A stretch of 29,471 bases of DNA from Bacteroidia bacterium. Lineage in GTDB: Bacteria; Bacteroidota; Bacteroidia; UKL13-3. The stretch's first letter is position 1; each line of letters begins with the position of its first letter. Location: contig JACFNJ010000002.1 in the NCBI GenBank assembly GCA_019454865.1, positions 1-29,471 of the forward strand. The letters run 5' to 3'. The notes under the pieces are model-generated. The model worked only from the letters and a program-made list of their open reading frames with translations, was not told where the DNA came from and made no database searches. Both the position numbers and the translations under genes were made by a program. This document shows, piece by piece, positions 5,787 to 17,020 of the stretch.

Positions 5787-5951
5787 AAAATAAGGTAAAT
5801 AAAGGATTAAAAAATGGATAATTAAAGTAAGACTTGAGTTGAACTTTTGTGTTCTGTGAGTATTAAAATGATTGTATTAATAAAGTTTGTCGCTTTGAAA
5901 CTTTGTTAAAAATGGTATGGTTTGCAAATGTGTTTGAAACTGTTGTTGCAT

Positions 5952-6617
5952 TCAGTCAATGTTTTTTACTTCTATAAGTTTTCGTTCAAAAAAATTCAAT
6001 GCAAATAAACTTCCATATCCTTCTTTGTGCTTAAATACGCAGCCCCCGTCTAAATTGATAGGGCTTTGAAAGGGTTGCGTAATGATAAAATTCCTTGGTT
6101 TTGGTGTGTGTCCGTGTATTAAGAGTTTTCCATTCAAATAATTATTTTCAATAGGAAAGTTCCTTATCCATAAAAGCGCATCTTTATCTTTCAAAGGGTC
6201 AGCAGCAGAAAAGTTTAAGCCGGCATGAACCAGTATAAAATATTTTGTTTGAATAAAATATTTTGTTCGCTTGAAGAAGTCTAAATATTTCTTGTCTAAC
6301 TCATAAATAGAACCTACTCCAAAACTCATGAATGTCTTATCGCCACCGTTGCATAGCCAATGTTCTTTTCCTGCTTCGTCAATTTCCGATTCTAACAAAA
6401 GTTGTTCATGATTCCCTCTAAGAGTATGAATTTTATATCCCTCGTTTCTAAGTTGAATTATAAAATCAATAACACCTTTGCTGTCGGGTCCTCTGTCAAT
6501 ATAGTCGCCAAGACAATAAATTTTATCAGTTTTCCGGATAGCTATCTTTTCTATCAGCAATTTTTTAAATGTCTTGCTGCATCCATGAATATCGCCTATG
6601 ATAAAGATTCTCGGCAT
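5952..6617 (-). CDS. PPP-family (PphA / lambda-phosphatase-like) metallophosphoesterase, probable Ser/Thr protein phosphatase
   Basis: GDIHG, LGDYIDRGPDS, LRGNHE, VHAG, IHGHTP and a degenerate LDGGC motif. ATG overlaps the kinase TAA (TAATG at 6619-6615). Confidence 0.85.
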   Translation of the reverse strand: MPRIFIIGDIHGCSKTFKKLLIEKIAIRKTDKIYCLGDYIDRGPDSKGVIDFIIQLRNEGYKIHTLRGNHEQLLLESEIDEAGKEHWLCNGGDKTFMSFGVGSIYELDKKYLDFFKRTKYFIQTKYFILVHAGLNFSAADPLKDKDALLWIRNFPIENNYLNGKLLIHGHTPKPRNFIITQPFQSPINLDGGCVFKHKEGYGSLFALNFFERKLIEVKNID

Positions 6618-8344
6618 TAAAACAGTTTGGTTTTATCATTTGTAAACTCATATTCAACATTGCCAATACCAACCGTATTTCTGCCAATCAACGGAGCTTT
6701 AAGATTTATTATTTTATCATTCAGGTAAGTTCCTGTACTGTTCAGGTCGTAAATCCAAATATCGTCTTTGTAATTTACGATTACACAATGTCTTCGGCTT
6801 ACTTCTGTACCACCGGGAACTTTCACATCATTTACATCATAATTTTCTCTTCCGAATTTGATGATGGGTTTGTTGGTTTCTGCTTCTTTAAAGTTTGCGG
6901 TGTTGCCGTTGGTGCAATACAAAGTTGATGGACTGTACTTGTTGAAGCGATAATCCATGAACAATAATTTTGATTTAAGCGTTGGCTCCTTTTTGTAATT
7001 GTGCGATGGTTGTGTTTCTAATAGTACGCCATAGTTGTAATTCAGAAAATGATTATCTGATTTATCAGCCTTTAAAACGGTATGCGGAAAAACCATTTGT
7101 CCCATGTTTTGCATTACACAACAGATGTAGTAATTATTTGCAAAGCATGGATTGTTTGGCTCAACTTCTAAAAGTATTCTTGCTAAATCCATTGCAGGCT
7201 CGTAGCGGTTGGTTTCGTAATAGCATTGCAGCAATAAATTATAGGCTTCATAGTCTGACGGATTGCGGTGCAAATGGTCGGATAACAAGGAAATTGCCGT
7301 AGGATAGTTTTGCAGTTCAAGATTTATCCATCCTAATTCTTTTTGTACGTCTAAGCGGGGGTTCCATTTCAGTGCTTTTTCGTAGTATGATTTTGCCTGT
7401 TCAATCTGCTGTGCCATCAGGTGATATTTGCCTTTTTGCAGCAAAATATTCACGCTGGGTTTTAAGTTGGTTTCGGCATACTCTAATAGTGAGAACGCTC
7501 TGTTCCATTTTTTGCGTTGTAATAATCGTTCGGCCTGCTCAGCCAAATCGCCTGCCTGAATTACCTCTTTATCAAACAGAATAGGAACTGATTGTGCCTG
7601 TATTGCCTCATGAAAATCTTTCATGCTCTGAAACCTTTGTTCAGGGATTTTGGCAATAGCTTTTAAAATAATTTCCTGCTGCCAGTTGGGTAGGGGTGTA
7701 ATTCCAAATTCTTTCCGGTCATGCAGTTCAATTATTTCTTCTGTTGATTTTCCATTAAATGGATTCTGGCCTGTACACATTTCTAAAAGTGTTACACCCA
7801 AAGCATATACGTCCACTCTTGGATCTTTTTCGGTATGGGTTTCCCAACTTAATGCTTCAGGACTCATGTAAGGTCTTGTGCCGCCTCCGGTATTGGCAAT
7901 GCCAAAGTCGGTTATTTTGATGGTGCGGTCTTCTGTAAAAAGAATATTGTCCGGCTTAATATCGTGGTGTACAATGCCTTTTTCATGAACCAACTGAAGG
8001 GTTTCGGTTAATTGGCTCATCCATTTCCAAATGAGAGTGGAAGCAGGGTTTTCGTTTCGCAGCAATTCGCGCAAGCTGCCCAATGTGCAATATTCCATTA
8101 CAATGTAGAGCAAATCATTCTGAACAAAATGATGCTTGTATAGCACAATATGCGGATGATTGAACTTTGATACCATCTGCATTTCGTAAATAATATCATC
8201 CTGCCTTGTCTTATCTTCGTTTTTTAACTGCTTGATGGCAACCAGATTTTCAGAGCGTTCCTCCTTTGCCAAAAACACTTTGCCAAAACCTCCATTGCCC
8301 AGGTCTTTTACATAGCGGTATTTATTATCAAAGAGTAGCTCCAT
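6617..8344 (-). CDS. Hanks-type Ser/Thr protein kinase with central TPR repeats and C-terminal FHA domain
   Basis: LGNGGFGKV, VAIK (K38), HHDIKPDNIL, TDFGIA, YMSPE, DVYALG. TPR-like helices (KGKYHLMAQQIEQAKSYYEKAL; AYNLLLQCYYETNRYEPAMDLAR). FHA motifs FGR, VSRRHCVI, DLNSTGTYLN. Confidence 0.9.
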   Translation of the reverse strand: MELLFDNKYRYVKDLGNGGFGKVFLAKEERSENLVAIKQLKNEDKTRQDDIIYEMQMVSKFNHPHIVLYKHHFVQNDLLYIVMEYCTLGSLRELLRNENPASTLIWKWMSQLTETLQLVHEKGIVHHDIKPDNILFTEDRTIKITDFGIANTGGGTRPYMSPEALSWETHTEKDPRVDVYALGVTLLEMCTGQNPFNGKSTEEIIELHDRKEFGITPLPNWQQEIILKAIAKIPEQRFQSMKDFHEAIQAQSVPILFDKEVIQAGDLAEQAERLLQRKKWNRAFSLLEYAETNLKPSVNILLQKGKYHLMAQQIEQAKSYYEKALKWNPRLDVQKELGWINLELQNYPTAISLLSDHLHRNPSDYEAYNLLLQCYYETNRYEPAMDLARILLEVEPNNPCFANNYYICCVMQNMGQMVFPHTVLKADKSDNHFLNYNYGVLLETQPSHNYKKEPTLKSKLLFMDYRFNKYSPSTLYCTNGNTANFKEAETNKPIIKFGRENYDVNDVKVPGGTEVSRRHCVIVNYKDDIWIYDLNSTGTYLNDKIINLKAPLIGRNTVGIGNVEYEFTNDKTKLF

Positions 8345-8347
8345 TGC

Positions 8348-11300
8348 TTACTCAATTTTTATTTTCTCATACTCCGCCTCGCTTAGCCAAAAATCTTTAT
8401 CTATTATTTTTACTTCATCATAAGTGAGTTCATACAGCTTGTAAACCAATACATCTATTTCTTTTTCTATAGCAGTAGTGTCCTGGTTTGCTTTTTTCTT
8501 TTTCAGGATTTCATCTACTAATTTTTCAAATTGATTTTCTAATCTACTTGTAAGAATTTTCGGAATTGGAAATTGTTTAGTATTAGCAATAAGAATTTTT
8601 TGGAAAATTTCTTTCTCCTTGTCTAAACACCTATTTGCATGATAGAACTTAATTAATTCAGAATTGAGTATTGCCAAAATGAATTTGATTTCACTTATGC
8701 TTTTCTTTTTTGAAATAACTCCAAAACCAATTTGAGTAAAGTATAATTCATCCTCAGTATAACCAGCATGAATTTTGAAATCTGGTTTACCAGCAACAAT
8801 TTGTCTAACTATAACTCTAGGCTCTTTGAAGAATTTTATCTCTCGTGGTGCACCAAGCCAATCGCCATATTTTAGAAACTCATCAATCGGTGTATTTTCA
8901 ATATTAAATTTATGAATATTCTTACCACTAATTAGCGGAACATATTTATTGTTGAGTTTCTTTTCAGAATGAAAAATTCTATTCTTAATATCTTCATTTG
9001 AATGCCCTTTGTATTTATCGTACGGTGTTATACCCAAAGAGAAGTCAGCAATATTCTTTAGAGTTTTACCAGTGCTTTCAATTTTTCTTAATATCAATTC
9101 AGTGTTATCGTCTGAGAAAATATTGAATCGGACATCCTTGTCCTTTTCCCAATCTTTCCTTGTGAAGTATGTGTATTCAAGATTGTTGAAATTTACATTC
9201 TCACCATTATCAAAATATCTTGTTTTAATAGTTTTTTCATTATTTCCTTTTTCTGCTTGTAAAATGATTGTCTCAACGATTGCTTCAAAAACATTATCAG
9301 GTAACTTGATAACTTGCTTCAAGCTTTGAATAAGATGCCTTCTTAGTAGCTGGTAAGATTCATTAACCAGTATTGAATTTGGAATGATGAAAATTATATT
9401 GCCATCTTTAGAAAGCAATGAATACCCCTTCTCAATAAATACTGCATATAGATTGATTCTTTTTTGCGTTGTCTTAAATGATTTGAAAAACTCTCTTACA
9501 ATTTCGGGCGGTAAACTTTTTATATCAACATAAGGCGGATTTCCAATTACCACATCAAAACCTTTGTCAATGCCAAACATCCATGTGGGAGAAAAGAAAG
9601 GGCTGGCTTTGCTGTCGTCAAAAGGGTTCCAGTGTTTTATTTTTTGTGCTATTTGTTTCAATACAGGGTCGTGTGCGGCTTCTATGTCGGCAATTACTTT
9701 ATCCCGTTGTTCAAAATAATTGGTCTTAAGTTTTTCTTTCTCGGTGCTTGCCAGGGCAGGTGTAAAAAATTGTTTACGCAAGTCTTCCAATGCTTTCAGT
9801 TGGCTTACTAATTTTTCAGTAAAGCCTTCGTGCAGTGTGCCTTTGCTTTGTTGTATAAAAGCATCTAATCCCAAATCAATTAAGCTATTGGCACATACAA
9901 ATTTAAAATCAAGGTTAGGCAGTGGTTTTACTCCAAAATTGTGCACCGGGTCTTTTGGGTTGTAGTTTTCTTCCAGCACCAAACTAAGCCATGCCCGCAA
10001 CCGTGCAATTTCTATTGCCATCGGCATAATGTCCACTCCATAAATATTCTGGCTCAGTATATCTTTCTTCAGTTCGTAGCTACTTTTTACTGTTCCCAGG
10101 GTTTCGTGTAGCTCAACCAACTTGTGCAAAATGCCCATAGGGAAGGCACCCGAGCCACAGGCAGGGTCTAATATTTTTATCTGCTCTAAAAATTGCAGCA
10201 GCAAGTTTTTTTCTTCCTTCTTTAATTGTGCTGCATAGGGTGTAGCACCAAAAAGCGGCTCAATGGCTTTTTCTATTTTGGTTTTTTCTTCCGGTTTCAG
10301 TTCATAGCGTTTTATTTCTATGGATAATTGCTGCGGTTTTTTGTTGCCAAAAATGTCGCCTGCTTGTTCGGGGTTATTCAGCGTTTTGGATTTCTTCTCA
10401 ATAATGTGCTGCTCCCACTGTGTTTGCAAATAGGCTTTAATGCTTTCGTTCACCATATAGTCCACAATCTCCCTTGGGGTATAAAAAGCACCATAAGCCT
10501 TTCGTTGGTTAGCTAATTTTTCAGTTTCTTCGTTTTGGCTTGCCAGCAGGTTTTCAAAAATACGACCCAGCATTTCGGGGTCAACTGCCACTTGCTGGTA
10601 TTGGCTGCTGCTTTCATCCACCGTAAAATCGTAGCTCTCCAATATTTCTACAAAAGGCAATAGCCATGCATCTAAATTTAAATTGGTAAACAGTTTGTCT
10701 TCATCACTTTCATCAAACAAGCCTCCGTTCAGGTAGGGTATATTGTCTGAACTATGATTTTTATGATTATTTGATTTCAGGATTTCTCTATCCTGAACCT
10801 TAGTGTTCAGCGTTTTGAAAAATAATGGAAGCAGAATGGTTTGATAATAGTTTGTTGTGTTGCGAATGTTTTCACAGCTGATTAATCCCGATGGAATAAT
10901 TCCTTTTTCTTTCAGAAACCAACAGAAAATATATCTGCCTATTAAGCGAACAGTAAATTGCTTTACCTGATTTTCGGTTGCTTTAGCATGTTGTGTTTTA
11001 ACTATGCCCAACAATGCATCAAAGCGTTCTTTTATTTGCTTGTAGAACTCTTTGTTTACTTCTTTAATGTCAAGTGATTTCCAAAGCAGGTCAGCAATTT
11101 CGGGTTTCGTTTTTGAGCCAACACCTTGCCATTGTTGTATGATTTTGTTGTATTGTGTGGTGGTTAATCTGCTGCGGAAAGAAACAATTCTTTTTTGTTC
11201 ACCCTGATTGAAAATCAGCACCAGTTTATCATAATCGGGTGTAGTTACAAAATGAATGAAATAGGGTTGCGGTGGAATGTATTGTGGTTTACCCGGAATA

Positions 11301-11665
11301 TGAATAATACCTTTAATAGAAGCCTGATAAGTGCTAAGTCCGGGGTCGTTGTCAACCAATTGGCTGATATATTCTTTCTTTAATTTTTTTAATACGGCAA
11401 AGCGGACACGGATATTTTGATTGTCGGCACTCAGGCGATACAACTGAGGTTGCACGGTTTGCGGAGCCGGAGCTAAATAATCTTTCAGTTTTTGGGTTTG
11501 TGGCGAAAGCAATTGCGGCTTGCCTGTCCCGTCTTTTGCGGGGCTGTCCTTGTTCACTTCAATGTTCATCCATTGCAGCAGGGCAAAAGCAAAATCCAAT
11601 ACATTTTCACGTGATGGATTTTCAGCCAAATGTGCTAATATTTTATTGATTTCGTTAATTGTCAT
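8348..11665 (-). CDS. Eco57I/Type IIG-like N6-adenine DNA methyltransferase with C-terminal TaqI_C-like target recognition domain
   Basis: YLNGGLF, VDPEMLGRIFENLL, GAFYTPREIVDYM, motif I ILDPACGSGAF, IYGVDI, motif IV VIGNPPY, TRD-type IVRQIV and FILAILNS, tail EIDVLVYKLYELT. No PD-(D/E)xK motif recognised in the N-terminus. Confidence 0.9.
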   Translation of the reverse strand: MTINEINKILAHLAENPSRENVLDFAFALLQWMNIEVNKDSPAKDGTGKPQLLSPQTQKLKDYLAPAPQTVQPQLYRLSADNQNIRVRFAVLKKLKKEYISQLVDNDPGLSTYQASIKGIIHIPGKPQYIPPQPYFIHFVTTPDYDKLVLIFNQGEQKRIVSFRSRLTTTQYNKIIQQWQGVGSKTKPEIADLLWKSLDIKEVNKEFYKQIKERFDALLGIVKTQHAKATENQVKQFTVRLIGRYIFCWFLKEKGIIPSGLISCENIRNTTNYYQTILLPLFFKTLNTKVQDREILKSNNHKNHSSDNIPYLNGGLFDESDEDKLFTNLNLDAWLLPFVEILESYDFTVDESSSQYQQVAVDPEMLGRIFENLLASQNEETEKLANQRKAYGAFYTPREIVDYMVNESIKAYLQTQWEQHIIEKKSKTLNNPEQAGDIFGNKKPQQLSIEIKRYELKPEEKTKIEKAIEPLFGATPYAAQLKKEEKNLLLQFLEQIKILDPACGSGAFPMGILHKLVELHETLGTVKSSYELKKDILSQNIYGVDIMPMAIEIARLRAWLSLVLEENYNPKDPVHNFGVKPLPNLDFKFVCANSLIDLGLDAFIQQSKGTLHEGFTEKLVSQLKALEDLRKQFFTPALASTEKEKLKTNYFEQRDKVIADIEAAHDPVLKQIAQKIKHWNPFDDSKASPFFSPTWMFGIDKGFDVVIGNPPYVDIKSLPPEIVREFFKSFKTTQKRINLYAVFIEKGYSLLSKDGNIIFIIPNSILVNESYQLLRRHLIQSLKQVIKLPDNVFEAIVETIILQAEKGNNEKTIKTRYFDNGENVNFNNLEYTYFTRKDWEKDKDVRFNIFSDDNTELILRKIESTGKTLKNIADFSLGITPYDKYKGHSNEDIKNRIFHSEKKLNNKYVPLISGKNIHKFNIENTPIDEFLKYGDWLGAPREIKFFKEPRVIVRQIVAGKPDFKIHAGYTEDELYFTQIGFGVISKKKSISEIKFILAILNSELIKFYHANRCLDKEKEIFQKILIANTKQFPIPKILTSRLENQFEKLVDEILKKKKANQDTTAIEKEIDVLVYKLYELTYDEVKIIDKDFWLSEAEYEKIKIE

Positions 11666-12268
11666 TGTTTTTTCTTCTTTCCGGTTTTCTTTACTTCTTT
11701 TAAAACATTTTTTTCTTCGCTATCCAATTTGCGTTTCAGTTTGATAATGTCTTCAGCAGGTGGCAATGCCTTTGCTGCGGATGATTGCGAAACCTTTATC
11801 GTCAACACCTCTTTCATAAATAATTCCCGAAAGTTTTTTCTCTGACTTAGAAAGCTTTTCTCTTGCAGTTACTCTTGCCACATCAAGTAATCGTTGCTCA
11901 ATGATTTCTTGTTTACGGGTTTGAACAGCAAAATAGGTTTGAGCAAATGCAATTTCACTTTTTGCCGGGTCGCCATTCTGAGCAACTAAATAACAAGCGT
12001 ATCTTGTGAGCGCAACATCATCAACAGGTCGTTGTGTTCCACTGCCAATATCAACCATTTTCCTGACATCAGGGAAATGGTTTTTCACCTCAACACCACT
12101 GGCTTCGCAAGCAGTTTTCGCTTTCTCAATCACTTTTGAAAAATTCTCCCACTTTGCGTAGCCCAGAATCACCTGTAATTCTCTTGCACTCCAGCATTCA
12201 ATACCTTCATATAAATAACAGGCGTTTTGGAATTTGTCAAAGAGTTCGTTTATCTGTTCTTTTTTCAT
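11662..12268 (-). pseudogene. dinD: DNA damage-inducible protein D (DinD, BRO-N-like) with internal out-of-frame deletion
   Basis: DinD motifs WSARELQ, LGYAKWENF, NHFPDVRKMV, LTRYACYLVAQNGDPAK, AFAQTYFAVQTRKQE up to ...RSKG, then IATC-stop at 11753. The shifted frame from 11769 encodes the DinD-like C-terminus ALPPAEDIIKLKRKLDSEEKNVLKEVKKTGKKKKQ-TGA (11664-11662), whose stop overlaps the methyltransferase ATG. Confidence 0.8.
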
Positions 12269-12313
12269 TTTTCTTTTTGTTTTTCAAACATTCCGAAGAT
12301 TAGCTTTGAGCGG

Positions 12314-15300
12314 TTACTCAAATATCTGTATAATTTCACTCAATGGTGCCCGCTCTGATTTTTCTTCGGGTTTGTATTGGTTAGCCAACGAAATGAATTG
12401 CTGGATAATTTCATCTGAAACATGTTCACCTCTACGGTTCAGGCGGTTTACCAATCGCACCAATTTTAAATTCTCTTTATTAATATAGGCATTTTGCGAG
12501 TGTTGAATACAATGTTCAACACGGTCAATTTCTTCAAACGGATAACCATACTCAATCATTTTGTTTTTTATAAATAGTATTGCACTTTGTTGAGGCTGAT
12601 TATATCGCACCTGATGCTCTTCTTCCGTAAACTGGTATCGTTGTAGTATGAAATCTGAAATGTAGGCTTCAGTTTCGGGTTTATGTTTGAATTTATCGGC
12701 AAAGCGTTCGTTTTGTTCGCTTGTTGCTTTTATGTGTAATAAGCCTTCGGTAGTGGTGAGCAACTCACCAATCTTATCTTTGGTGAATATCACAAAATAA
12801 CCTGCATCCAACGTTTCTTCTTCACCTGTAGCCAAATGACCAAGATGTATAAAATCATCTTCTTCTTTTCGCATTTGCACTTTGCCCCATTTTCCTTTAG
12901 GCATATTCTTAATTTGCTCTTTGTAAGTTAAAGTAAATTCTTCATTTCGGTCAAATGCTCTAAGGTCGTCCATAAATAAGTCTTCGGCAGCAAGCAATTC
13001 CGATGTTTCAAATATTTTTTGGAAGGCTGCCATACGTTTCTTTTCGTCACGGCTGTAAAGGTCTTCTGTATAATCTTGTGGCTCGGGATCTTCGTCTAAA
13101 ATAGATTGGTCGGTTCCAATAGTATAGCGAATCAGGTTGATTTTATCTTCTAATTTACGGACTAACTGCAAATAACTTTCCAACTGTTCTTCAGGACGGA
13201 AATTATAAATAAAAATCTCTTCGTGTTTAGTTCCCAAACGATTGATACGACCATTTCGCTGAATCATTCGCACAGGGTTCCAATGCAAATCGTAGTTAAT
13301 AATCATGCCGCAATCTTGCAGGTTCTGCCCTTCAGAAAGTTTGTCAGTAGCAATCAAAAAATCAATTTCCTTTTCTCCGTTTTTTAGTTGGTATTTTTTA
13401 GACACAGGAGCAAAGCGTTTGGCATAATCTTCTATCTCGCTTTTTGAACCTAAGGCAAATTCAATGTTTTTGCCTTTCACTAAATATTGTGGAAGGTTTT
13501 CAGACAGATATTGTAAAGTGTCGGCAAAGTAGGTAAACACCAAAACTTTTCGGTCTTCATTCTGATTCAGGTGTTTGGCTAATTCCTGAATCTTATCATC
13601 CTTATCTAACAAATACTTGATTTGTTCTTTCAGAATTTTTAGCACTGCAATATCTTTGCTGATGTCAGCTTTCAGTTGTGTTACATTAAACACTCCTTCA
13701 TCGGCATCAATACTGGTAAAGCCCTCCTCTGCACTTTCAAAATCTTCAATATCAAAGTCCAATTCATCCTCATCAGCATTTTGTTCATTGTAAGCATCAA
13801 TGGCTTTATTTAGAGCAGAAAGATTTTTAACCGAAATTATTTTATTGAATTTTTTCAATTTATTTTCAAAGTCAATCAGCTTTTTCTCATAGCTGCCAAT
13901 TGATTTATTGATAGAGAAAAGTGAAGATTCCAAACGTTTTAAGAATACGGTTCTGAAAATGCCGTAAATACCTATTTGTCTGCTCAGTTCCCGGTTTTCA
14001 TCTGCATTCAATTCTAATTCGCCACGTTTTCTGCCGTAGTAAGCATGACGATAAATGTTGTATCGATAGCATGGGAAACCTAAACTCAGTAATGCAGTGT
14101 AAATAATTTCAAGTGATGAATGAATGGGTTTGTCTCTTTCGGTGTAATGATCAAACAAATCAAGTGGATGTGCTAAATACTCCAAGTCAGCCAAACTGTT
14201 TATCTCATAGTTGAAAGCCCTTGTGAGTTCAGGATTGGTCTCGGCATATTTCAATAATTGCGATTTGAACTGATTGGAAACTTTATATTCTAAATTGTCG
14301 GGATAAGATTTTGGGAATTTTTGAAGTTTACCATTTATCTCTAATCCATCAGGATATTCTTTTTCAATTCCTTGCCTTGTTCGTCTTACAATAAAGCGAT
14401 TCAACAAAGGAGTGAGTTGTTCTTTTATTTGCTGATAATTTATAAATCCGCTTTCACGTATTTGCCTTCTCATATCTGTTTGCAGCAGTTCAAAGCGTTC
14501 TTTTAGTGTAAAATATTTTTGAGTGCTGCGGTCATAAAATTTCCCTAACTTAAAAATTTCGCCACCCGAACCTAACATGATTTGGTTGGTAAGGTCGGCT
14601 AACTGATTGTTGATAGGGGTTGCGGTAAGCAGCAAGGTTTTAGCATTTTCATTTTCCTGTCGCCATTTGATAAATACATCAAAGCGTTGTCCGCCAGATG
14701 CTCTTAGGTTGTGGCTTTCATCAAAAACAAATAAGCCAACGGGAATAGATTGCAGGTTTTCACGAACATCTTTAATTTTCTCGGTATCCTGCAAACTGTA
14801 AATTTCAGGAATATGAACCACTTTAAAATCATCGAATGATTTTCTCCATTGTTGAATTAGCCCCGCAGGTGCAATGACCACAACTCGTTGATTCAAATTT
14901 TGTTTGTAGTATTCAATCACCTTTATGGCTGTGTATGTCTTGCCCAAACCAACAGAATCAGAAAGCATTGCCACGCCTTGTCGTTCTAGTTTTTTAATAA
15001 GCGAATTGGCATTTTGTATTTGAAACTTCAATAGCTGTGGTTTCCCTGAACTTGGGTCGTCTGTGTCAACTTTATTTTCTTTCTCGTCTAACAAATCCTG
15101 CCCGTAAATGCGATACAAGGCATGGATATACATTTCGTAAGCACTAAAACAAGTACCGCCATGTTTACTCAAAGCCAGAATTTCTTCTTTGAAAGTTTTA
15201 CTCCAATCTTCACTATCGTTCCATAATTCTTCAAACCACGTGCGATGTGAAGGATGCTGAGAAAGATTTTTGCGGATAAAGTTTACAGTTGCATTGTTGT

Positions 15301-15820
15301 CCTCAAACTGGTTTAATTCAAGATTACCGAACAATCCTTGCTTTGTGAAATTAGAACAACCGATAATGCCTATTGCATTTTCTTCATCCGATCCAAAAAT
15401 GTAACACTAAGCATGAAGAAAGTTTTTACGGTAAACTTTGATTTGAATTTTTCCGGTATTCGTTTCGTTCATGTGTTTTCCTAGCAAGTCAGCAACTTGC
15501 TGAAACTCGTCTTTCAGTTGCAGGTTCTCTAAATCATTTTTCAAATATTTTTCGGGAAAGTCGGGGTCTTGCTGCTTTGGTTTTTTAACTTGATAGGCTC
15601 TTACAGATGGTTCTTCGCCTAATAGCAGTCTGAATGTAATATTGTCCCGTTCCAAAAACTGATTCAATTCTTCAAGGATTGTAACCATTCCGGGCAAATC
15701 CCAATAACCTGTTGCAATTGAAATTTGAGAAAAACTTTTGTCTTGTATTAGTTCTTTTAATACAGTACCAAGTTGATACTCGTTTGATGAATTGTCAATT
15801 AGCTTTATACCTTTCTTCAT
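12314..15820 (-). pseudogene. PLD (HxK) nuclease-SNF2/DExH helicase fusion interrupted by one in-frame TAG (1168 codons if read through)
   Basis: ORFs 15407-15820 and 12314-15334 are in the same frame, joined by 24 sense codons: FLHA-TAG-CYIFGSDEENAIGIIGCSNFTKQGLFGNLELN. Helicase motifs LSDSVGLGKT, FVFDESHN, LLTATPINN, VLVFTYFADT, ATDKLSEGQNLQ, QRNGRINRLG. Confidence 0.85.
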
Positions 15821-16104
15821 TTCTTCAAATTCTTTTTTAGAATGTTCAATGCATCAGGAGCTAAATCTTTTTCGTTACCAACAGCGTTTTCCAACTTATC
15901 AGCCAGCCAAAGCGTAAGCAGTTCTTCTTCGTAGGCTTTTAAGAATTTGGCAATCTCAATCACCTGTTGTTTGGATGCTTTTCTTTTCCCTCTTTCAATC
16001 TTGCTCATAAGTGCAGTGTCCACCTCGAGATGTGCAGCAACCTGTCGTAGTAGAAGGTTTTGCTTCTCTCTCAGTTCTCTGATTCTCTGCCCTAAATTGC
16101 TCAC
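15817..16104 (-). CDS. XRE-family HTH transcriptional regulator (controller-protein-like)
   Basis: LGQRIRELREKQNLLLRQVAAHLEVDTALMSKIERGKR; GTG start; its TGA overlaps the helicase ATG (ATGA at 15820-15817). Confidence 0.88.
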   Translation of the reverse strand: MSNLGQRIRELREKQNLLLRQVAAHLEVDTALMSKIERGKRKASKQQVIEIAKFLKAYEEELLTLWLADKLENAVGNEKDLAPDALNILKKNLKK

Positions 16105-16119
16105 GATGTTAGTTTTTTG

Positions 16120-16147
16120 TTTGACTTGTCAAATTATGTCAAATGTA
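16120..16147 (-). promoter_or_regulatory. Putative operator palindrome and -7 promoter element of the XRE operon
   Basis: TTTGAC-TT-GTCAAA perfect 6-2-6 palindrome at 16120-16133, a further GTCAAA half-site at 16138-16143, and minus-strand TACATTTG (TAnnTTTG) at 16147-16140. Confidence 0.55.
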
Positions 16148-16444
16148 AGTATTATTTCCGAAATCAAAATGTGCCAAATGCGGGAGGGCGTATAATTATT
16201 TTTTTAAATGTATGGTGGGAAAATTTTAATAACTTTTGGGTCGGGTTAGGTGTAGGCAAGGTCGGTCTGTTTCAAGATGCAATGAACTGTCTGTCGAATC
16301 AAAGTCCGCTTATGTTTTTGGCTGTAATGTCGTGCGATTTTTAGTCGAAATTGTCAAGGGTGAACGGTTGTCCTACTCATGTCTGTAACATGTGTATTTA
16401 ATACATTGTGTGTTTAAATAATTATACCTATTTACTTTTTAGTG

Positions 16445-17020
16445 CTATTGAAAAATTTGCTGAATTAAATTCCAAAGGACAAGTTTTTTTTCTTTGTTTT
16501 CGTGGTAGTTTTCGGGTGCATCTGCAAGCAGTATTTTCGTGTTGTTTTCAACTAAAATCTGATGAAAAGAAGTAGCAGGAAAAAACGGTTGTGTACCAAA
16601 AATTATTATTTGCTTAGGTGATAACTCCTCCAAAATTTGATTTTTAGTTAGTGTAGGGTTTTTTGAGATTCTAATTATTGCAATATCATCTAATTGTAGT
16701 TGCAATGCTTTTTGAAAAATATTTTGTATAAATAGCGCATTCTCCTTGCTATCGTTTGTAGTATCGTTGTAAATAAATACAATATGTTTTTGGTTTTTGC
16801 CTGCATACTCTATCTTTGGCAGGTTGATTGTATTTTGAGGTTGATTCAAAGAATCATTTATCAACGTATTTGATTGATTACTTTCTATTGCAGGAGTATT
16901 ATTTGTAACGGTTTCCTCTTTATTTGTCGAACCGGTAAATAACTCTTCTTTGGATGTAATATCCGATACCAAATAAAATTCATCAAATAAATCAACAATT
17001 GTTTCTATTTCTAATTTCAT
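16445..17020 (-). CDS. Conserved-looking hypothetical protein (low-complexity N/T-rich linker, alpha/beta C-terminal domain ending K..LW..I..IF)
   Basis: 191-aa ORF with host-like AT-rich codons; no function recognised with confidence. Confidence 0.65.
   Translation of the reverse strand: MKLEIETIVDLFDEFYLVSDITSKEELFTGSTNKEETVTNNTPAIESNQSNTLINDSLNQPQNTINLPKIEYAGKNQKHIVFIYNDTTNDSKENALFIQNIFQKALQLQLDDIAIIRISKNPTLTKNQILEELSPKQIIIFGTQPFFPATSFHQILVENNTKILLADAPENYHENKEKKLVLWNLIQQIFQ

Follow-up and report, generated by a model that had tools for sequence, protein, structure and literature searches.

The 29,471-nucleotide stretch of the Bacteroidia contig JACFNJ010000002.1 analyzed here, hereafter the window, encodes a Ser/Thr kinase with TPR repeats and an FHA domain (575 amino acids (aa); 6617..8344, minus strand) and, overlapping the end of its gene, a bacterial-type PPP phosphatase (221 aa; 5952..6617, minus strand). 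Together the two genes make up the 3′ end of a co-directional operon, and we propose that they act as a phospho-signaling add-on to a mobile restriction-like cassette in which a PLD-SNF2 helicase-nuclease is combined with a type IIG-like methyltransferase, an interpretation that we draw from sequence comparisons and to which we give about an even chance. The junction between the pair reads TAATG, the kinase's TAA and the phosphatase's ATG having one base in common, and it is kept in 11 of the 12 intact kinase-phosphatase pairs (the window's pair included); on the other side, 3 nucleotides (nt) lie between the methyltransferase stop and the kinase ATG. Measured against a diverged homologous pair at locus L056, the ratio of nonsynonymous to synonymous substitution rates (dN/dS) comes to 0.072 in the kinase gene and 0.076 in the phosphatase gene. 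Both genes are real, intact and translationally coupled, and the comparisons support a tightly coupled module under purifying selection in a defense context. The original prediction had described an intact Hanks-type kinase and a PPP phosphatase with GDxHG, GDxxDRG and GNHE motifs, joined by overlapping stop and start codons, and this description is confirmed at the positions given above.

The kinase matches the Pfam family Pkinase with E=1.4e-52 (179 bits), as well as TPR_19 and FHA, and carries the residues expected of a Hanks-type enzyme (G16/G18/G21, K38, E54, H126-H127-D128, N133, D146-F-G and SPE163). Its catalytic residues (GxGxxG, K38, E54, HHD128, N133 and DFG146) are invariant in 75 of 75 full-length relatives, every one of which has a non-RD catalytic loop of the HHD form and an activation segment (DFG to PE) of 18 residues. 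The FHA domain, which scores 37.3 bits against a Pfam cut-off of 20.7, has the residues of a phosphothreonine reader (G498, R499, S516-R-R-H519 and N524); G498, S516 and N524 are conserved in all 75 relatives, R517 in 74, H519 in 73 and R499 in 62. An AlphaFold2 (AF2) model of the protein (pLDDT 84.8, pTM 0.74) places the kinase domain at residues 1-250, about eight TPR helices at 259-412, then a linker, and the FHA domain at 475-570. No solved structure matching this whole architecture was found, and the structural matches were confined to the kinase domain. The phosphatase matches Pfam Metallophos (E=2.7e-17), yields an AF2 model with a pLDDT of 96, and contains the PPP signature residues GDIHG (8-12), GDYIDRG (37-43), GNHE (68-71), H131 and H168/H170, all invariant in 27 homologues.

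Relatives of the kinase are widespread. A pattern scan with one genome per species gave 394 pattern hits, and 361 of these species-representative genomes encode a relative; close homologues are plentiful and nearly all are 575 aa long. The 79 best relative loci (neighborhood counts, below, use 80 loci) come from Bacteroidota, Verrucomicrobiota, Planctomycetota, Acidobacteriota, Chloroflexota, Spirochaetota and several Proteobacteria; even at the lowest identity, 39%, their kinases still align from end to end. With only the TPR-FHA half as the query, ~70 clusters (clustered at 50% identity) are matched at E<=1e-30. Because that half occupies the same place, residues ~255-575, in the full-length hits (about 565-580 aa; the remaining hits are shorter and fragment-length), the Hanks kinase-TPR-FHA architecture of about 570 aa is fixed across the family. 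Within the window's genus, a full-length orthologue occurs in genomes G000 and G010 only, and the other matches are weak, partial ones to other kinases or to TPR repeats. Carriage by phages was considered and rejected: the 2.9 million viral contigs of IMG/VR contain a single full-length relative, the rest of the matches being giant-virus kinases. Since it is patchy within the genus and nearly absent from viral contigs, the kinase is a horizontally mobile cellular gene.

We clustered the open reading frames (ORFs) within 8 kb of the kinase at the 80 loci. PLD-SNF2 and/or IIG-type methyltransferase genes lie near the kinase in 28 of them, and both are present in 9, including loci in Bryobacterales, Brocadiia and Bifidobacterium-labelled metagenome-assembled genomes (MAGs). 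The gene order seen in the window, HTH/PLD-SNF2/methyltransferase/kinase/phosphatase, recurs in L010, L015 and G010. DUF1156 methyltransferase and/or HEPN-DUF499 ATPase genes are found near the kinase in 9 of the 80 loci, and in five of these (L070, L084, L086, L089 and L091) the kinase sits directly between the two; the hosts of such DUF1156-kinase-DUF499 loci are Proteobacteria, Spirochaetales and Phycisphaerae MAGs. Genes for BrxL, McrB-like AAA5 proteins and MTES_1575 helicase-nucleases each occur in 3 of the 80, and other immediate upstream neighbors encode Type ISP, Schlafen, McrBC, DUF3800, NYN and OLD-like ATPase proteins. In total, at least one of the PLD-SNF2, IIG-type methyltransferase, DUF1156, DUF499, BrxL, McrB-like and MTES_1575 genes lies within 8 kb in 41 of 80 loci, and in 32 of the 54 that have at least 6 kb of upstream sequence. 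Judged by gene content and order, the kinase is a recurrent and often operon-internal companion of methylation-based defense systems, in other cases closing their operons at the 3′ end.

In the window, the cassette extends over about 10.7 kb from the HTH gene to the phosphatase (5790..16450, minus strand) and, as an empty site in relatives shows, the whole of it is one insertion. In six genomes of the same genus, including G010 (contig C207), no more than ~14 nt separate the counterparts of window positions ~5789 and ~16454. The flanks, Ham1/RdgB (window up to ~5789) and ORF191 (from ~16454), are housekeeping genes, and the cassette between them contains no phage genes. G010 carries its copy of the operon on another contig (C49) with unrelated flanks, and shares with the window only 16151-5919, at 74-78% nucleotide identity. 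Neither an integrase nor convincing terminal or direct repeats were found flanking the cassette. The first gene of the operon encodes an Xre-type HTH regulator of 95 aa (15817..16104, minus strand; Pfam HTH_31, E=6.7e-11) with PADLOC control-protein and capH-like matches, and such a gene holds the same position in L010, L015 and L021. It is followed by the PLD(HKD)-SNF2 helicase-nuclease (12314..15820, minus strand), which is split by an in-frame TAG at 15407-15409 and is 82-86% identical, on both sides of that codon, to the intact 1167-aa protein of L010. The type IIG-like methyltransferase (8348..11665, minus strand) is an intact N6-adenine enzyme of the MmeI/Eco57I family, 1105 aa long, with a TaqI_C specificity domain; it matches Pfam Eco57I, N6_Mtase, TaqI_C and MmeI_Mtase and the PADLOC model REase_MTase_IIG (E=1.4e-93), and is 77% identical to its L010 counterpart over the first 780 aa, the target-recognition part having diverged. 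Between helicase and methyltransferase lies a truncated DinD/Bro-N-like gene (171 aa; 11753..12268, minus strand), which covers positions 2-175 of the 288 in NCBIfam DinD and aligns to residues 23-175 of a 280-aa homologue in L021; full-length copies stand at the same position in L013 (5823-6692) and L021 (5668-6510).

Two further features of the cassette's variable genes were seen. The DinD-like gene is full length where the phosphatase is decayed (L013, L021), and absent (L010, L015, G010) or truncated (the window) where the phosphatase is intact; at 3 loci against 4 only, this anticorrelation may be due to chance. Also, a conserved 129-aa ORF without a Pfam match begins 3 nt after the phosphatase in L010 (12397-12786), L002 (3891-4280), L015 and L014; it is missing from the window, and the homology with G010 stops 33 nt past the phosphatase stop. 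L014 (JBPOIP010000133.1) is a 3-kb contig with kinase, phosphatase and the 129-aa ORF that was binned as 'Pseudomonadota bacterium'; its phosphatase is identical to that of L010, a locus of Bacteroidota type, and its taxon label is probably a binning error.

The original prediction took the genes upstream of the pair to be broken, and the persistence of the pair amid their decay as a sign of an addictive or still-selected module. The apparent break in the helicase is a lone in-frame TAG (FLHA-TAG-CYIF) at Lys138 of the HxK nuclease motif. We compared the 10-kb locus with contigs from four sequencing runs (X10, X3, X17 and X15). X10 (DNA) and X3 (an RNA library) span the stretch completely or almost so, X17 (also an RNA library) only in short pieces; where they cover it, all three are identical to the window except at 15358, 15374, 15391 and 15409. 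These positions fall within 52 bp, in or beside the PLD HxK motif, and at all four the three runs agree with the consensus of intact homologues, with AAG (Lys) in place of TAG; three of the differences change an encoded residue (Lys to stop, Thr to Ser and Ser to Cys). X10 also contains a minor second contig with differences at 14120-14330, and the contigs of X15 break precisely at 15357/15410, the edges of the variant patch. Because other runs read Lys in otherwise identical sequence, the amber codon is a variant or error of this assembly and not a feature of the element, the patch reflecting either a local mistake of assembly or polishing or a nuclease-dead allele present alongside. The helicase is also intact in G010, and the DinD-like gene alone is truncated in all runs. 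Of the predicted upstream damage, what stands is the truncated DinD-like gene; the methyltransferase is intact, the helicase lesion belongs to one assembly, and the picture of a pair outlasting its decaying neighbors is not supported. The locus (5952-15900) is near-identical (0.95-0.99 of sampled words) in wastewater, activated-sludge and bioreactor metagenomes from at least 11 studies (2020-2025), from which it follows that the host strain is widespread in wastewater and sludge plants.

How might such a pair serve a restriction-like cassette? In our proposal, an infection cue is sensed through the TPR part, or this part serves for docking on partner defense proteins; the catalytically intact kinase would then phosphorylate threonines on defense, host or phage proteins. 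The FHA domain could read phosphothreonines of the kinase itself or of its substrates. The phosphatase would hold basal phosphorylation low and reset the switch, as a modulator and not as an indispensable antitoxin. One residue, Thr152 in the activation segment, is a candidate regulated site: it is present in 14 of 15 phosphatase-linked kinases, where the segment reads ANTGGGT, and Thr or Ser occupies the position in 16 of 60 others, most phosphatase-less relatives having ANK/R-N-x-GT.

Several observations weigh against this proposal. The association of Thr152 with the phosphatase is confounded by phylogeny. Evidence of transcription is weak and consists of short metatranscriptome contigs only: X17 gave short contigs, and the 28.7-kb contig that spans the locus in the X3 RNA library is best read as DNA carry-over. 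Sequence and predicted fold leave protein phosphatases tied with nucleotide or polynucleotide phosphatases as the likely substrate class, with structural Z-scores of 23.1 for RLPH2, 22.8 for the CthPnkp phosphatase, 21.9 each for ALPH and ApaH, and 20.1 for lambda phosphatase (lambda PP). Close relatives of the phosphatase (58-62% identity) stand alone on chromosomes, away from any kinase gene. About half of the kinase loci show no recognized methylation system within 8 kb, many of the contigs being short. Finally, there are pairs that have neither helicase nor methyltransferase next to them, in L019/L012, where they lie on integrase/primase/AbiE islands, and in L016, L018, L056 and L050; because such pairs exist, the pair may work autonomously.

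Autonomy is the essence of the alternative that survives best, which we nonetheless consider doubtful: a toxin-antitoxin system (type VII-like) or abortive-infection switch in which a toxic kinase is neutralized by the phosphatase until a phage factor upsets the balance, the restriction-like genes being neighbors only because genes cluster in defense islands. Besides the stand-alone pairs, it draws on the tight translational coupling and strong purifying selection described above, and on the PADLOC models that the kinase domain matches best, mad6 (E=2.4e-61) and then the single-gene defense kinase PD-T4-6; the PD-T4-6 models cover the kinase domain alone (E=4e-55, residues 5-260), and architecture and operon context differ. 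It also has a precedent in KKP (PfkA/PfkB/PfpC), a prophage kinase-kinase-phosphatase system that has been shown experimentally to be a toxin-antitoxin with anti-phage activity, and whose phosphatase is inhibited by a phage protein (PMC11341870). The original prediction had cited this precedent, with its PP2C-type phosphatase, correctly.

The distribution of the phosphatase counts against an obligatory toxin-antitoxin pair. An intact 221-aa phosphatase stands directly 3′ of the kinase at 11 loci and in the window, and the kinases so linked are all at least 53% identical to the window's and belong to a Bacteroidota subclade only; within the window's genus, the phosphatase occurs only in the two kinase-bearing genomes. 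No trace of this phosphatase is found in 64 of the 80 scorable kinase loci, and at four more it is reduced to a remnant of 32-75 aa or a pseudogene. L013 retains the first 33 codons, L017 retains 33 codons with a stop, L021 has an internal deletion that removes GDxxDRG, and L058 holds a frameshifted, stopped pseudogene. In all four the kinase is intact as far as the contigs reach (a full-length ORF in three), and in L013 and L021 so is the whole HTH/helicase/DinD/methyltransferase/kinase operon. A toxin of the generic kind is not kept without its antitoxin, and because here the phosphatase decays while the kinase stays intact, an obligatory pair is disfavored. The 24 downstream and 29 upstream neighbors of phosphatase-less kinases include no recurring substitute phosphatase, whether PP2C or of another type, and no second homologue of the phosphatase was found in the window's genome. 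The placement of the kinase between core genes of BR systems also argues against a self-contained toxin, as does its place here at the end of a cassette that was inserted as one, and the argument from amber-based decay is invalid. The original prediction read the pair as a possible toxin-antitoxin or reversible abortive-infection switch, addictive or still selected, in which the phosphatase neutralizes basal toxicity of the kinase and infection shifts the balance. A reversible phospho-switch remains plausible given the coupling, the dN/dS of about 0.07 and the example of KKP; the addictive part is unsupported, and the phosphatase is clade-specific and dispensable in relatives.

We regard as unlikely a second alternative, in which the phosphatase does not act on substrates of the kinase at all and is instead a nucleotide or polynucleotide phosphoesterase (ApaH/ALPH/Pnkp-like, acting for example on Np4N caps or, in the course of restriction, on DNA or RNA ends), or a shield that strips defense proteins of inactivating phosphates added by phage kinases. 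The tied structural scores are compatible with it, and the best NCBIfam match is ApaH, although below the cut-off (PRK00166, 57.7 bits vs 176; TIGR00668, 31.5 vs 222.85). A shield would fit the disarming of defenses through phosphorylation by the phage T7 kinase that passages of PMC13645617 describe. The evolutionary history of the enzyme also leaves room for other substrates, since its nearest relatives outside the operon are the kinase-less chromosomal genes mentioned above. In a tree, the kinase-linked phosphatases form a single clade (SH-aLRT 87), within which four stand-alone chromosomal genes are nested; a more distant, widespread Bacteroidota phosphatase family, which 168 of 401 genomes carry and whose identity does not exceed 48%, is kinase-linked in 0 of 29 loci checked. 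From the tree and these stand-alone relatives, the phosphatase was recruited from an ordinary Bacteroidota PPP lineage. Against a role apart from the kinase stand the conserved TAATG junction and the fact that, in the genus, the two genes always occur together. Wherever a kinase-family locus contains the phosphatase, it comes immediately after the kinase, a statement that covers those loci, kinase-less defense cassettes not having been searched for it. The protein itself, at 221 aa, resembles lambda PP in length and lacks the ~70 extra residues of ApaH (198 of 269 ApaH residues align, the catalytic core being common to both), and it has the RGNHEQ and HWLxNGG motifs in common with lambda PP. 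That this strain carries the cassette as an inactive relic, its pair conserved only through recent insertion, is very improbable: the amber in the nuclease motif and the truncated DinD-like gene would suit it, but the amber is absent from three otherwise identical runs, the locus recurs near-identically across many wastewater and sludge studies, and methyltransferase, kinase and phosphatase are full length, the pair with low dN/dS against a diverged homologue.

Our proposal of a phospho-signaling add-on can be extended to the family as a whole, although we offer the extension tentatively. The kinase-TPR-FHA proteins may be a portable, cross-phylum phospho-signaling part of methylation-based immunity (PLD-SNF2/IIG, DUF1156-DUF499 BR and BREX-1), gating restriction versus modification or guarding against phage anti-restriction, and the Bacteroidota pair may be the first version of it with a reversible switch, parallel to, and not homologous with, PglW/PglZ and KKP. 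Our literature searches found no paper describing the kinase-TPR-FHA family and none on a PLD-SNF2/IIG-methyltransferase/kinase(/phosphatase) cassette. Kinases are required in Pgl/BREX-2 and MADS, and to our knowledge nobody can say what they target or why they are needed. A compact kinase family of fixed architecture that is associated, in diverse phyla, with three or more distinct kinds of methylation-based system, with one natural subclade that has a dedicated phosphatase and with natural phosphatase 'knock-outs', offers a way to approach this question. The cassette is small (5-6 genes, about 10 kb), which makes it a tractable system for studying how phosphorylation is wired into restriction-like immunity, and for asking whether the phosphatases found there are antitoxins, resets or anti-counter-defense factors.

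The module resembles KKP, TerY-P and Pgl in pairing a kinase with a phosphoesterase in a defense setting, and it lacks the defining features of each. Like KKP, it sets a Hanks kinase against a co-encoded phosphatase and involves an FHA domain, the balance between the two serving in KKP as an anti-phage switch. In KKP, however, a PP2C enzyme is teamed with two kinases, of which one bears a cold-shock domain, and the system is carried by temperate prophages; the window has one kinase without a cold-shock domain and a PPP-type phosphatase that is dispensable in relatives, in a chromosomal restriction-like cassette. The TerY-P triad of a vWA protein, a PP2C phosphatase and a Ser/Thr kinase, a proposed phosphorylation switch (summarized in PMC11090510), is likewise a kinase-phosphatase module attached to restriction-like systems, but its kinase carries a zinc ribbon, which the window's kinase lacks, and no cassette protein has a vWA or PP2C domain. 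Lambda PP and PrpA/PrpB share with the phosphatase its 221-aa length and the GDxHG, GDxxDRG and RGNHEQ motifs; lambda PP (1g5b) is its best PDB sequence match (E=2.3e-10, residues 3-175), at about 25% identity, and by structure the window's phosphatase is equally close to RLPH2, the CthPnkp phosphatase domain and ApaH/ALPH. MANTIS (Gao_RL) was ruled out as the same system, being a different one of four genes.

Among methylation-based systems, Pgl/BREX-2, of which the PglW kinase is a part (PMC4365076, PMC12839542), likewise has, within a single defense operon, an adenine methyltransferase of the Eco57I family, a Ser/Thr kinase and a protein with a phosphoesterase fold, and follows methylation-based self/non-self logic. 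PglW, however, is a protein of 1400-1600 aa with a NERD nuclease, a pseudokinase and a kinase, PglZ has an alkaline-phosphatase fold and PglY/BrxC is required; genes for PglZ and PglY/BrxC are absent from the cassette, and its proteins score 77.2 bits against a cut-off of 990 for NCBIfam PglW and 44.4 against 400 for BREX-2 PglX. MADS is a methylation-associated defense that needs a Hanks kinase, MAD6, as demonstrated genetically in a preprint that also notes that PADLOC groups such kinases under generic DNA-modification systems (bioRxiv 10.1101/2023.03.30.534895). Here the match to mad6 is limited to the kinase domain, the score for NF047741 (MAD6) is 116.7 bits against 460, the other mad genes are absent from the cassette, and the window has a phosphatase, none being described for mad1-8. 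By these scores, the kinase is neither a MAD6 nor a PglW equivalog. The BREX-related, DUF499-centered BR type 1, as passages of PMC12839542 and PMC7641849 present it, consists of a COG1743/DUF1156 methyltransferase, a DUF499 ATPase and an SNF2 helicase-nuclease, and the passages searched in these two papers on BR systems make no mention of this kinase. The window differs from it in having a type IIG-like methyltransferase in place of the DUF1156 enzyme and no DUF499 ATPase. Both systems nevertheless use a helicase-nuclease of the SNF2 kind, with a PLD or PD-(D/E)xK nuclease in BR type 1 and a PLD nuclease in the window, and distant members of the kinase family, full length at 39-43% identity, reside inside BR type 1 operons.

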